This document shows, in pieces, positions 1,585 to 5,604 of a DNA stretch of 64,000 nucleotides (positions are counted from its first letter, which is position 1; each line of letters opens with the position of its first letter). The stretch lies in NCBI GenBank assembly GCA_944320495.1, contig CALUHR010000013.1:192001-256000 (forward strand), read 5' to 3'. The position numbers and the translations under genes are program-made. Origin of the DNA: Candidatus Methanomethylophilaceae archaeon. Lineage in GTDB: Archaea > Thermoplasmatota > Thermoplasmata > Methanomassiliicoccales > Methanomethylophilaceae. Below the pieces are notes generated by a model. The model worked only from the letters and a program-made list of their open reading frames with translations. It searched no databases and was not told where the DNA came from.

Positions 1585-1634
1585 GGAAAATCACCGTTCG
1601 AAGCGCGTTCGGCGCCTTTAGTGTTCACACGCGC

Positions 1635-1662
1635 ACGCGAATCGGTGTATATACACGTTTTC
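1635..1662 (-). promoter_or_regulatory. Probable BRE/TATA promoter of ilvE
   Basis: Minus strand GAAAACGTGTATATACAC, about 60 nt upstream of the ilvE ATG. Confidence 0.55.
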
Positions 1663-1668
1663 GGAGCT

Positions 1669-2700
1669 TCGCTCGCGGAGAATCGCGTCCACCGCATCGG
1701 AGAACGGGACATCCCCGCCGACGCGGAATGTGCGGCACCCCAGACGGCGACCGAACTCCATGTCGGAGTCGCTGTCGCCGACCATCCACGACCTGGACGG
1801 GTCTATGCCGTACCTGGCCATGGCGGCGAGCCCCATGCCTATCTCCGGCTTGCGGCACGAGCAGTTCTCGTCCGGCCGGTGGGGGCAGTAGAAGATGTCG
1901 TCGATGCGCCCGCCCCCGGCCTCGACGGTGCGCCGGAGCTTGGAGTGGATGGCATCGAGGGTCGCGAGGTCGAAGTAGCCGCGGTTGAGCCCGGACTGGT
2001 TGGTTATCACTATGACCAGGTATCCTGCGCGGTTGAGCCTGGCGATCGCCTCCGGGACGTCGGGGTAGACCTCGAACTTGTCCGGGTCGTCGCAGTAGGG
2101 GACGTTCCTGGCGACGGTGTCGTCCCTGTCGATGAATACGGCTCGGCTGCCGAAGAGCTCCCTCTCGACGATGCCGGCCACGATGTGGCAGGCGCAGAGG
2201 TAGCCCTCCTGGACGTGGGGGGTCTCGGTGGTGGGGATGACGACCGCGTGGTCCGCGATCTCCCTCATCTTCCCGCAGTCGCCGGTGAAGGCGATGGTCA
2301 CGCCTCCGCGGGCCTTGGCCTCCTCCATCGCGAGGATCACGTTCTTGGAGTTGCCGGATGTGGAGAGCCCGACGAGGACGTCCCCCTTCCTGCAGATCCC
2401 CTCGACCTGCCTCTTGAACACGATGTCGTAGCTGTAGTCGTTCCCGATGGCGGTCACGGGGGCGATGTTGGACAGGCACACGCCGGGGAGCGCGGGACGC
2501 TCCATCATGTACCTGCCGGAGAACTCGGCGGCGATGTGCTGCGCGTCTGCGGACGAACCGCCGTTGCCGCAGAATATGACCTGATTGCCGTTGCGGAACG
2601 CATCCCTGATGATGTCCGCAGCTTTCCTGATCTGGGCGGGATCGATCGCGGAGATCGCCGCAGCCGCCTTCCCAAGCTCCGCCGTAATCGCGTCAGTCAT
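1669..2700 (-). CDS. gmhA: Phosphoheptose isomerase (GmhA/SIS) plus heptose-bisphosphate phosphatase (GmhB/HAD-IIIA) in one frame; internal CGA at codon 186, proposed CGA stop at 1669-1671
   Basis: CGNGGSSADAQHIAAE, GLSTSGNSKNV, HVQE (GmhA); FIDRDDT, ITNQSG, YCPH..CSCRKP, VGDSDSD (GmhB). The standard-code ORF extends to 1618 through the ilvE promoter. Confidence 0.9.
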
Positions 2701-3709
2701 TTGGATATCTCCAGGATGTCACGCCCTGGGGCTCGAACATGAAGTCGGTGACCTTCGCGCCCATCTTCCCGAGCTCCTGCGCGACATTGTACTTGCGGTC
2801 GTATTCGCATATGAAGTACATGAACCCGCCACCTCCGGCGCCGGTGACCTTGCCACCTATCGCGCCGGCCGACCGCGCGGCGGAGTACATCGCATCTATC
2901 TGCGGATTGGTGATCTTGTTGGAGAACTGCTTCTTGTAGGTCCAGGCCTCGTCGAGGATCTCCCCGGCGGTCCTGATGTCGCCCCTCTCCATGGCCACGT
3001 TCATGGCCTTCGCCAGCCCCTTGGTCCTGTCCAGGGCCTCCTCGTTCTGACCCTTGTTGAACTTGGAGACCTGGCTCTCGATGATGGAGGCGGACTCGCG
3101 GGTGTGGCCGATGTAGCACAGGAGCGAGCAGTACTGGAGTTCATTGACGGTGTCCGGGTCGATCCTGACGCGGTTGACGTTGACGCCGCTGCTGTTGAAG
3201 AGCATGTAGTTGAAACCGCCAAACACTGCCGCGTACTGGTCCTGCTTGCCTCCCTTGAGACCTATGTCCTCCCTCTCCAGCTTGTAGGCCAGGCTGGCCA
3301 TCTCGTGGCCGGTGAGCCTGATGTTCTGCCACTCGCACATGGCAGCGATGATGGAAACGATGACCGTCGACGAACCCCCGAGGCCGGATCCGGGAGGGGC
3401 CTCGGACTGCAGGAACATCTTGAATCCGTCCGTGACCTCGAAGTGGTTGGTCACGGCCTTGATGAGGTCCATGTTGCCGTCGAGCTTGAGCGGTCCGCCG
3501 TCGAGGGACGCCTCGTACTTCCCGTAGTCGGTGGAGTGGACAGACATGGAGTGGTCGTCGGTCGGGGTTATCGTGCAGTATGCATAGCGGTTGATGGTCG
3601 TGTTGAAGACCGCTCCGCCCTTCTTCGACGCGTACGGGTCGACGTCGGTGCCACCTCCCGCGAGGCCTATCCTCAGTGGCGCCCTAGCCCTGTAGTGCGT
3701 ACCATGCAT
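2693..3709 (-). CDS. hddA: GHMP kinase, D-glycero-alpha-D-manno-heptose-7-phosphate kinase-like
   Basis: RAPLRIGLAGGGTDV, PPGSGLGGSS, GGKQDQYAAVFGG, GKVTGAGGGG; adjacent to gmhA/B. Confidence 0.85.
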   Translation of the reverse strand: MHGTHYRARAPLRIGLAGGGTDVDPYASKKGGAVFNTTINRYAYCTITPTDDHSMSVHSTDYGKYEASLDGGPLKLDGNMDLIKAVTNHFEVTDGFKMFLQSEAPPGSGLGGSSTVIVSIIAAMCEWQNIRLTGHEMASLAYKLEREDIGLKGGKQDQYAAVFGGFNYMLFNSSGVNVNRVRIDPDTVNELQYCSLLCYIGHTRESASIIESQVSKFNKGQNEEALDRTKGLAKAMNVAMERGDIRTAGEILDEAWTYKKQFSNKITNPQIDAMYSAARSAGAIGGKVTGAGGGGFMYFICEYDRKYNVAQELGKMGAKVTDFMFEPQGVTSWRYPND

Positions 3710-3881
3710 CCCATTTACCCCTAGAGACGCCCCGATGTAGACAGGGTGTCTGATTTCGCAATTCTATGGGTAATATATAACAATGAGCGTCGAACCCTGC
3801 GATTTCCACGTGCTGGCACATTATGCGGTAGCGCGAAAGGCCAGTCCTCGCATTTATAACATGGAAGACGATTGCCGACCG

Positions 3882-5030
3882 ATGCGGATCGCGATGATGA
3901 CCGACAGCTGGTACCCCACGAGGGACGGCGTCGTCACTTCTGTCACCATAATCAAGGAGTCCCTGGAAGCACTGGGGCACGAGGTGTTCATCATAGCCCC
4001 GGAGCCCGAGGAGGAGTTCAGGCAGGACGGGGTCTACTACTTCCCGTCCGTGCGCTTCAAGTCGTACGATGGGTACTACGTGCCGATCTACCCCTCCCAC
4101 AAGAAGAGGATCCTGAAAGAGATCGACCCCGACGTCATCCACATACACGGCGTGGCCACCATGGCCATAAGGGGCCTGATCAGCGGCCACGAGCTGGGGA
4201 TCCCCACGGTCATGACGTTCCACACCATGGTGGACGACGCCGCCCGCTACTATTCCCCGATCAAGATGTCCCCGCAGACCATGGAGAGGCTCATCTGGAT
4301 CTACCTCAGGCAGATCCTGAAGCGCGCCGACGTCGTCGTCACGCCCACGTCGTGCATCGGCAGGGAGCTCGCATCCCACGGCGCCGAGTGCAGGAACCTG
4401 GTGACCATCCCCACGGGGACGGACGTCGCGAAGTTCCACCCCGGGATCGAATCCGGGTACGTCAGGGATAGGTACGGCCTCGAGGGCAGGAGGGTCGTCA
4501 TCCACGTCGGCCGCATATCCTACGAGAAGGATCTGGACATGGTCGTCCGCGCCATGACGAAGGTCGACGCGGTGCTCCTCGTGGCCGGGAAGGGCCCGGC
4601 AAAAGAGGACATCGAACACCTCGTGGACGAGCTGGGCCTCCGGGAGAAGGTCGTTTTCGCCGGCTTCGTCCCCGACGAGGAGCTGCCGGCGTTCTACAAC
4701 GCGGCGGACATAGCCGTCTCCGCGTCCAAGTTCGAGACTCAGGGACTGTCCATCCTGGAGGCCATGGCTTCCGGGAAGCCGGTCGCCTGCAGGAACGGCC
4801 GCGCATTCGCGGAGATCGTGAGGGACGGCGAGAACGGGTACCTCTTCGACGACGTCGATGGGTGCGCCGCCGCCATGGAGAGGGCGTTCGACGCGCCGGC
4901 GGAGGTCCGCGAGGCCTCGTACCGCACCGCACTGGAGAACTCCCGCGAGAGGAGCGCCGAGCTCTACGTCGGGGCGTACGAGCTGGCGAAGAGGACGAGG
5001 GCGGAGAGGATCGGCCATGGGACTGAGTGA
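3882..5030 (+). CDS. GT4 family glycosyltransferase
   Basis: MRIAMMTDSWYP..DGV, HVGRISYEKD, ETQGLSILEAMASG. TATA-like TTTATAAC at 3853-3860 supports the 3882 start; an in-frame CGA sits at 3876. Confidence 0.9.
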   Translation: MRIAMMTDSWYPTRDGVVTSVTIIKESLEALGHEVFIIAPEPEEEFRQDGVYYFPSVRFKSYDGYYVPIYPSHKKRILKEIDPDVIHIHGVATMAIRGLISGHELGIPTVMTFHTMVDDAARYYSPIKMSPQTMERLIWIYLRQILKRADVVVTPTSCIGRELASHGAECRNLVTIPTGTDVAKFHPGIESGYVRDRYGLEGRRVVIHVGRISYEKDLDMVVRAMTKVDAVLLVAGKGPAKEDIEHLVDELGLREKVVFAGFVPDEELPAFYNAADIAVSASKFETQGLSILEAMASGKPVACRNGRAFAEIVRDGENGYLFDDVDGCAAAMERAFDAPAEVREASYRTALENSRERSAELYVGAYELAKRTRAERIGHGTE

Positions 5031-5604
5031 GTGGCTGTTCGGGCTGTTCTCCGGCATGGGGGACCCTGGGATCGTCCTGTGCGTTTTCCTGCTCTTCCTG
5101 ATCGACGCCCTGTTCTTCCCCACCTTGCCGGAGCTGTTCATGGTCCTCGGCTTCGGGGCCAACCCCACATTGGAGTTCGCGGTCGTCCTGCTCGGGGTGG
5201 CGATAGTCGCCGAGCTCGTCGGCGTGTTCACGCTGTACTTCGTGGTATCGAGGATCAAGGTGCCGGAGCGCATATCGCGCATCGCGAAGAAATACATCGG
5301 ATTCCTGGTGGTCAGCGACGAGAAGATAATCCTGGTCAACCGCGTGGCGCCCATGATCCCCTTCCTCGGTGCGTTCATCGCCATGATAGACACGTGGGAC
5401 AGGCGCAAGTGCGCGCTGTACATCGTGATCGGCTGCGTGCTGAAGTACGGGGTCATCCTCGCCGCCAGCGGGTTCTTCCTCAACTATCTGGGAAGCGACA
5501 CGGCCCAGAGCGTCACGCTCGTCTTCATATTCGCAGTGCTCATAGTGAGCTTCGTCGCCTCCTTCTACAAGAAGAGGAAGGAGGGCCTGGAGGGATCCGA
5601 ATGA
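5017..5604 (+). CDS. DedA/SNARE-associated-like membrane protein
   Basis: Several hydrophobic helices, LIDALFFPTLPE and NRVAPMIPF motifs; overlaps both flanking GT4 genes (ATGA overlap with the downstream one). Confidence 0.7.
   Translation: MGLSEWLFGLFSGMGDPGIVLCVFLLFLIDALFFPTLPELFMVLGFGANPTLEFAVVLLGVAIVAELVGVFTLYFVVSRIKVPERISRIAKKYIGFLVVSDEKIILVNRVAPMIPFLGAFIAMIDTWDRRKCALYIVIGCVLKYGVILAASGFFLNYLGSDTAQSVTLVFIFAVLIVSFVASFYKKRKEGLEGSE

Follow-up and report, generated by a model that had tools for sequence, protein, structure and literature searches.

Programmed readthrough of a stop codon makes two isoforms from one reading frame in retroviral gag-pol, at a UAG, and in the tobamovirus replicase. 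The short product arises by termination at an in-frame standard stop codon on a domain boundary, and the long product arises when a near-cognate tRNA wins over the release factor; the region past the stop is conserved and lacks its own start. Bacterial RF2 is autoregulated through an in-frame UGA in its own gene, a codon that its own product reads and that is passed by a +1 frameshift. In Methanomassiliicoccales and Methanosarcina, UAG both terminates and has a dedicated tRNA, for pyrrolysine, as the result of a stop-to-sense expansion. Sense-to-stop changes are known from organelles (NCBI tables 2, 22, and 23; AGA/AGG, UCA, and UUA, respectively), in which a former sense codon ends genes that have standard stops in relatives; these genomes are tiny, and the cognate tRNA has been lost. 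Ambiguous stops that specify an amino acid inside genes and a stop at their ends have been described for Condylostoma, other ciliates, and Blastocrithidia (PMC4967479). In these organisms, standard stops gained sense, and termination is thought to be tied to nearness to the mRNA 3' end. Work cited in PMC13092985 reports a tRNA with a 4-bp anticodon stem, an altered stem geometry that accompanies the code change. Yeast eRF1 mis-decodes CGA, and even one CGA at the end of a gene is read as stop to a detectable extent; this is a minor rescue function at a slowly decoded codon and not how genes normally end there (PMC7379694). A search of the published literature for CGA as a stop in the family studied here returned nothing; one preprint merely speculates on CGA in two unrelated hydrothermal-vent archaea (10.64898/2026.04.02.715157).

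The site described here is a CGA codon inside a fused GmhA-GmhB gene of a gut methanogen, an archaeon of the family Methanomethylophilaceae. Positions refer to the window, that is, the whole 64,000-nucleotide stretch of DNA that was analyzed, unless a contig is named. TCG on the forward strand at 2143-2145, read directly from the sequence, is CGA on the minus strand, and it is codon 186 of a table 11 ORF of 360 aa (1618-2700, minus strand; ELFGS-R-AVFIDRDDT). The earlier note had placed this CGA between a complete GmhA and the HAD domain of GmhB, and the sequence and the profile boundaries agree with it. GmhA/SIS profiles stop at residue 185 (PRK13936 spans residues 21-185), and GmhB/HAD-IIIA profiles (PRK08942 and TIGR01662) start at residue 186. 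Its statement that no ATG, GTG, or TTG precedes the DxD motif is likewise correct: only four codons, GCC GTA TTC ATC, stand between the CGA and the motif's first Asp. It had also called this the only internal CGA, which holds within the window, where the other CGAs in ORFs lie upstream of the real start or among the last few codons ahead of the standard stop.

Profile searches assigned both parts of the protein to families (Table 1). SIS_2 matched residues 17-140 of the GmhA part with 94.7 bits (cut-off 27), as expected of a SIS fold, and the best family was TIGR00441 (gmhA), with 176 bits, under its equivalog cut-off of 209. The GmhB part has HAD motif I (DxDxT), as DRDDT at residues 191-195, and matched the HAD-IIIA profiles TIGR01662 with 122.5 bits (cut-off 44.6) and TIGR01656 with 138.9 bits (cut-off 84); against PRK08942 it scored 158 bits, with the equivalog cut-off at 178. 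Operon context with HddA and GmhA supports a GmhB role for this HAD domain. The adjoining hddA-like product matched the HddA profile NF049969 with 294 bits, under the curated cut-off, and also matched GHMP_kinases_N/C. Glycosyltransferase genes flank the heptose cluster.

Both ends of the putative products have counterparts in relatives. If translation ends at the junction, the GmhA part would be the product set free, and its last codon, 185, falls in the same end column as the stand-alone GmhA of another genus and the split-form GmhA of this genus. The GmhB part ends with AVDAILRE-CGA; in relatives, a TGA or TAA follows the conserved AVDxIL after two to five codons, and six other loci of the genus have CGA at the GmhB end as well. 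In g7, another genus of the family (e.g., G046, G086, and G095), GmhA is a stand-alone protein of 191 aa, and the GmhB domain lies within a protein of 500-600 aa with a different fusion partner.

Table 1. Features of the gmhAB locus, in window coordinates
Feature	Position	Strand	Remarks
hddA-like D-glycero-D-manno-heptose 7-phosphate kinase (GHMP kinase)	2693..3709	-	Stop overlaps gmhA start
GmhA part, codons 1-185, sedoheptulose-7-phosphate isomerase, SIS fold	2146..2700	-	Profiles
Junction CGA, codon 186, proposed leaky stop	2143..2145	-	Context AGC-CGA-GCC
HAD motif I Asp-Arg-Asp, codons 191-193	2122..2130	-	Begins five codons past junction
GmhB part, codons 187-343, HAD-IIIA heptose-bisphosphate phosphatase	1672..2142	-	TIGR01662, TIGR01656, dN/dS
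Terminal CGA, codon 344, real end of GmhB	1669..1671	-	Relatives: TGA/TAA within 2-5 codons
Non-conserved tail of table 11 ORF	1618..1668	-	CGA codon 353 (1642-1644); backup stop TAA (1618-1620)

The use of CGA was analyzed across the 1.77-Mb assembly, in which 1259 ORFs were called with an iterative codon model. Codon counts from naive longest ORFs were dropped because antisense shadow ORFs contaminate them. Two such ORFs lie antisense to real genes in the window, at 604-2742 (+; 712 aa) and 3684-5483 (-; 599 aa), and the 599-aa one had zero Pfam matches in a profile search; long ORFs of this kind skew naive codon statistics. Counted by ORF decile (n = 1259), CGA occurs 350, 135, 28, 17, 5, 8, 16, 28, 71, and 274 times, and the remaining rare A-ending codons are distributed about evenly along ORFs. 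Coding periodicity is lost past the first late CGA in 211 of the 1259 ORFs, and CGA ends about 17% of ORFs. GC at codon positions 1, 2, and 3 of these 211 ORFs is.60/.44/.89 just before the late CGA and.70/.57/.63 after it. With ten control codons, GC3 stays at.80-.87, and the loss of periodicity is confined to CGA. Because periodicity ends at late CGAs in so many ORFs, CGA behaves as a stop on these sequence statistics and would terminate translation in this organism. Depletion alone is weak evidence, since CGA is scarce in the outgroup genera too (about 0-1 per 1000 codons). The code status of single relatives was tried on samples of 5-40 kb, which held too few genes and in which core CGA depletion was non-discriminating, and mapping the CGAs of G011, G020, G016, and G012 onto the orthologues of this genome was swamped by shadow-frame matches. 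Public gene calls give the gmhAB ORF as one protein of 360 aa with two CGAs read through, so table 11 would mis-state many protein ends in these genomes.

Terminal CGAs have a characteristic context. U is the +4 base at 52% of them, compared with 29% of TGA stops in this genome (Fisher p = 3e-10), and C is the -1 base at 51%. The next in-frame standard stop lies a median of 13 codons past a terminal CGA and 24 codons past a TGA (p = 2e-7). When the coding part was restricted to at least 300 codons, which limits ascertainment bias in the comparison of backup stops, the distances were 19 and 30 codons (p = 6e-4). The shorter distance after CGA is a sign that termination there is leaky in general.

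Internal CGAs were sought over the whole genome by scoring the coding signal on both sides of every CGA with at least 50 codons on either side. The junction CGA ranks first genome-wide for two-sided coding signal (1.07 and 1.16; core mean, 0.89). Only one other CGA, in second place, compares with it: aRF1 codon 88, which encodes the conserved Arg of the AARLKTYK motif; lower-ranked candidates were weak or consisted of two genes in one frame. At G000:C1:9080-10573 (-), two same-frame FMN-reductase genes are separated only by a CGA and then a nearby ATG, and table 11 turns them into one 497-aa ORF. In an ankyrin-repeat ORF at G000:C8:97745-99463 (-), codon 417 of 572 is a CGA; it lies past the final Ank repeat, has a fair signal on both sides, and may mark a third site of readthrough or the boundary of two genes. 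At the junction the +4 base is G (C-CGA-G), and at aRF1 codon 88 it is C (U-CGA-C). G is also the +4 base at 23% of terminal CGAs, so context alone has no power to separate the two classes. RNA structure predicted downstream of the junction gave no signal (z = -0.3 and -1.0).

The fused GmhA-GmhB frame is present in 16 of 19 sampled genera of the family. The junction column of 23 inspected outgroup loci holds Lys in 21 (AAG/AAA), AGA in one, and GCC in one, which makes the fusion ancestral and the CGA derived. The 32 in-frame loci of the genus have CGA (25), TAG (3), AGA (2), AAG (1), and another codon (1), and a fourth genome with TAG at the junction was found beyond this set; the column thus keeps a putative in-frame terminator, CGA or TAG, through most of the genus. 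The earlier note had named a sense codon in relatives, together with full readthrough of the site, as the outcome that would make CGA termination context-dependent; a sense codon was found outside the genus, where it is Lys, and not inside, where CGA or TAG is kept. Recurrence of the same codon at the same column in 25 of the 32 loci disposes of a sequencing error, also raised in the earlier note, as do the 50 public cluster members, all of 360 aa. Two genomes deviate in the placement of CGA. G020 has AAG at the junction and CGA as the Arg codon of the DRD motif, six codons downstream; G011 has one CGA a codon before the junction column and another in DRD, and with two CGAs near the boundary the loss of GmhB would be multiplied unless readthrough is efficient. 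The AGA lineages comprise two genus genomes that are viable with a plain sense codon, so a stop at the junction is dispensable.

In five further genomes, the junction reads CAG/GAA-TAA[G/A], with one extra base that puts GmhB in the +1 frame. An ATG, GTG, or TTG has been made two or three codons before the Lys, and these are true split genes. The three TAG loci formed one clade in the first gmhAB tree (support 98/94), and in the extended tree a single clade (SH-aLRT 92) took in the four TAG forms together with four of the five split forms. The split genome G024 falls inside the TAG group in both the gmhAB and the aRF1 trees, and one of the AGA genomes falls among those with CGA. The TAG clade appears to be the source of the split genes, and with the moderate support for deep branches in these trees, the most parsimonious series would be Lys to CGA to TAG to TAAG (split), with AGA as a reversion. 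At G007:C11:12000-15200, a split-type gmhB returns to the gmhA frame 16 codons past the junction, which is either a broken gene or an assembly error.

Both parts of the fusion are under purifying selection. Over the 25 CGA-junction loci of the genus (293 pairs), median dN/dS was 0.167 for GmhA and 0.208 for GmhB, at dS of about 0.9-1.1, and GmhB of the TAG clade had a dN/dS of 0.146 at dS 1.2. These values rule out that GmhB is a pseudogene and refute a strict stop with a silent GmhB, one of the options first put forward for the site. A search of this genome with the fused protein gave only this one GmhB match. No start codon (ATG, GTG, or TTG) is conserved between the junction and DxD among the 32 in-frame genus loci. 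Since GmhB is constrained and has no conserved start, it would have to be reached by reading through CGA or TAG; a downstream frame under purifying selection that lacks its own start is the pattern of programmed readthrough.

The codon itself is also conserved. Fourteen other conserved Arg columns in the same alignment are a mixture of AGG, CGC, CGT, and AGA, and CGA makes up only 2 of about 430 codons in them, one in G011 and one in G020, each at column 192. Among the 32 in-frame loci, no AGG, CGC, or CGT stands in the junction column. The absence of drift at dS of about 1 argues that the codon is selected as such; to judge from the alignment, the genome's most avoided codon is held in place at the junction.

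The components that could decode CGA are encoded in the genome. A tRNA-Arg(UCG) was found outside the window, at G000:C13:413317-413390 (+), by ARAGORN. DNA matching and ARAGORN gave copies in 20 genus genomes, and a pattern search added 4 more; BLAST-type searching missed the copies found by pattern, so the blanks in 19 genomes are no evidence of loss. The tRNA loss that goes with organelle-type sense-to-stop changes was thus not seen here. Four of the five pairs of the anticodon stem are held by compensatory changes. The fifth, 31·39, is mismatched in every tRNA-Arg(UCG) of the genus (A·A in this genome, C·A or U·C in congeners), and the listed outgroup-genus copies all have a C-G, U-A, or U·G pair at this position; the mismatch, specific to the genus, may be a molecular correlate of the change in code. 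The sole aRF1 gene (G000:C2:85933-87195, minus strand) has CGA for Arg88 in 30 of 30 genus genomes, always with a rare GCT or TCT before it and CTN after it, and five outgroup genera have CGT, CGG, or CGC there, which suggests autoregulation of the release factor. The NIKS and YxCxxxF motifs of aRF1 are the same in the genus and the outgroups, with no obvious release-factor change. PylS is encoded in all four TAG-junction genomes, and TAG at the junction would be readable as pyrrolysine. Arg as the residue inserted at CGA would fit the AGA reversions, the Lys/Arg ancestry of the column, and the conserved Arg88 of aRF1. Taken from sequence, CGA has the marks of a codon with two meanings: a sense reading at aRF1 Arg88 and at the junction, a stop at 211 ORF ends, and a tRNA that is present.

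We compared the readings on offer for codon 186. The earlier note had listed a strict stop, an unusual start, a plain Arg codon, RNA editing, and a leaky stop or programmed readthrough; only the last is favored, by dN/dS, codon conservation, and the TAG swap. A strict stop is excluded by a constrained GmhB without its own start. A plain Arg codon, as a counter-example to CGA termination, is disfavored by the stop behavior of CGA genome-wide, by the conservation of this codon beside drifting Arg columns, and by its replacement with TAG in one clade. Our preferred reading, to which we give a probability of roughly 0.6, is that codon 186 is a dual-meaning leaky stop that would yield free GmhA where ribosomes terminate and the GmhA-GmhB fusion where Arg is inserted. 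Ribosomes at CGA in this genus would usually terminate, with aRF1 presumed to read CGA as a near-UGA codon, and termination at codon 186 would release the complete GmhA of 185 aa. Some ribosomes would instead take the retained tRNA-Arg(UCG), add an Arg, and go on in the same frame, and the readthrough product would be the ancestral 343-aa GmhA-GmhB fusion, ending at CGA codon 344. We infer the making of both products, the role of aRF1 as terminating factor, and the GmhA-to-fusion ratio as a selected trait; the termination share at codon 186 could be near zero. Tentatively, the junction may be an evolved regulatory device in which aRF1 competes with a tRNA-Arg(UCG) that has been deliberately weakened, and this contest sets the GmhA:fusion ratio; the site would then record the intermediates of a gene fission.

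The alternative that survives best, though we consider it unlikely, is that CGA 186 is a sense codon protected by its context, read nearly always as Arg to give only the fusion, with slow decoding that aids the folding of GmhA. Retention of the cognate tRNA-Arg(UCG) is in keeping with this, as are the need of aRF1, in all genomes of the genus, for Arg to be inserted at its own CGA, the lack at the junction of the +4 U favored at terminal CGAs, the viability of the AGA lineages, and the likelihood that TAG decoded by tRNA-Pyl would also be slow. Zero termination is nonetheless improbable for a codon that ends about 17% of ORFs and whose terminal copies share the +4 G of the junction in 23% of cases, and the onward evolution to TAA and separate genes shows that free GmhA is acceptable or favored. 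We know of no archaeal precedent for a pause codon conserved in this manner.

There is little chance that the CGA is a neutral relic, tolerated because truncation leaves a working GmhA and a little readthrough is enough, with the ratio unselected. The only in-frame CGAs of the gene, including those at column 192 in G011 and G020, do lie no more than six codons from the boundary, where truncation does least harm. Against this, a neutral CGA at dS of about 1 should often drift to CGN or AGR, and two AGA and no CGN were seen; the outgroup Lys, moreover, indicates that CGA arose in or near the genus and is not an old leftover.

Re-initiation has a marginally slimmer chance still. Here the stop would be strict, and GmhB would be made by termination-coupled restart at GUA, GUC, or AUC. 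The Val codon two positions past the junction is GTG in 14 of the 32 loci, and split relatives translate GmhB separately from overlapping starts. This genome and 17 other loci have GTA, GTC, or GTT there, with no other start before DxD (GTG 14, GTC 10, GTA 4, and GTT 4 in all), and the codons that follow vary too, which leaves the unusual start at GTA or ATC once proposed for this genome unsupported. Split forms gained a new ATG, GTG, or TTG in the +1 frame, implying that the in-frame forms have no usable start, and a restart past the first strand residues would cost part of the HAD core strand. RNA editing of CGA to UGA at gene ends (perhaps at C-CGA-U) and not at the junction or in aRF1 is the least probable reading, and a very improbable one: it needs only a single C-to-U change and would suit the distinct terminal context (-1 C at 51%, +4 U at 52%) and the two internal CGAs without +4 U, but close to half of the terminal CGAs have another base at +4, editing would leave the TAG swap, the shorter distance to backup stops, and the tRNA change specific to the genus unexplained, and we know of no mRNA C-to-U editing system in archaea.

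Read as a leaky stop, the junction resembles viral readthrough in having a putative in-frame terminator at a domain boundary, a short product by termination and a long one by a tRNA out-competing the release factor, and a conserved downstream part without its own start. It differs in that the terminator would be an ex-sense codon with its own cognate tRNA, in its archaeal host, and in giving no signal of downstream RNA structure. Like UAG in pyrrolysine-using archaea, CGA would both terminate and have a dedicated tRNA, and the TAG clade of the genus, which encodes PylS, uses TAG at the same column; here, in contrast, a sense codon would have gained a stop meaning with its tRNA kept. A triplet with two meanings and an altered anticodon-stem geometry in the decoding tRNA are shared with ciliates and Blastocrithidia, whereas CGA here has been purged from nearly all internal sites, with only two kept. 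Organelle codes share the ending of genes by a former sense codon, but this is a cellular genome with a tRNA that is kept and constrained. Compared with yeast, CGA would be a normal gene ending here. The sister case at aRF1 codon 88 recalls RF2 in that a release-factor gene carries a codon its own product would read, and it differs in that the CGA would be passed in frame, with Arg inserted. Programmed readthrough is a known kind, as are dual-meaning codons; what would be new is a cellular genome that puts a reassigned sense codon to such use and, in the case of the junction, the interchange of that codon with TAG/Pyl and the path from there to gene fission.

Should the junction be a regulatory device of the kind outlined above, it would be the first case in a cellular organism of programmed readthrough at a reassigned sense codon, and it would act as an inbuilt reporter of a new genetic code in archaea. 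Provided that CGA is a stop in the genus, the junction and aRF1 codon 88 are the two places that still need it to be read as Arg, and they would show reassignment as a competition between release factor and tRNA and not as a clean switch. The junction would be the easiest place to measure that competition, with one mRNA, two products of very different size, and many species, and with natural controls in the AGA sense variants, the TAG variants, and the split genes. The passage from a Lys fusion through CGA and TAG to TAA with one extra base and two genes suggests gene fission via a leaky-stop stage, a plausible route by which a fused gene may come apart without ever losing either activity.
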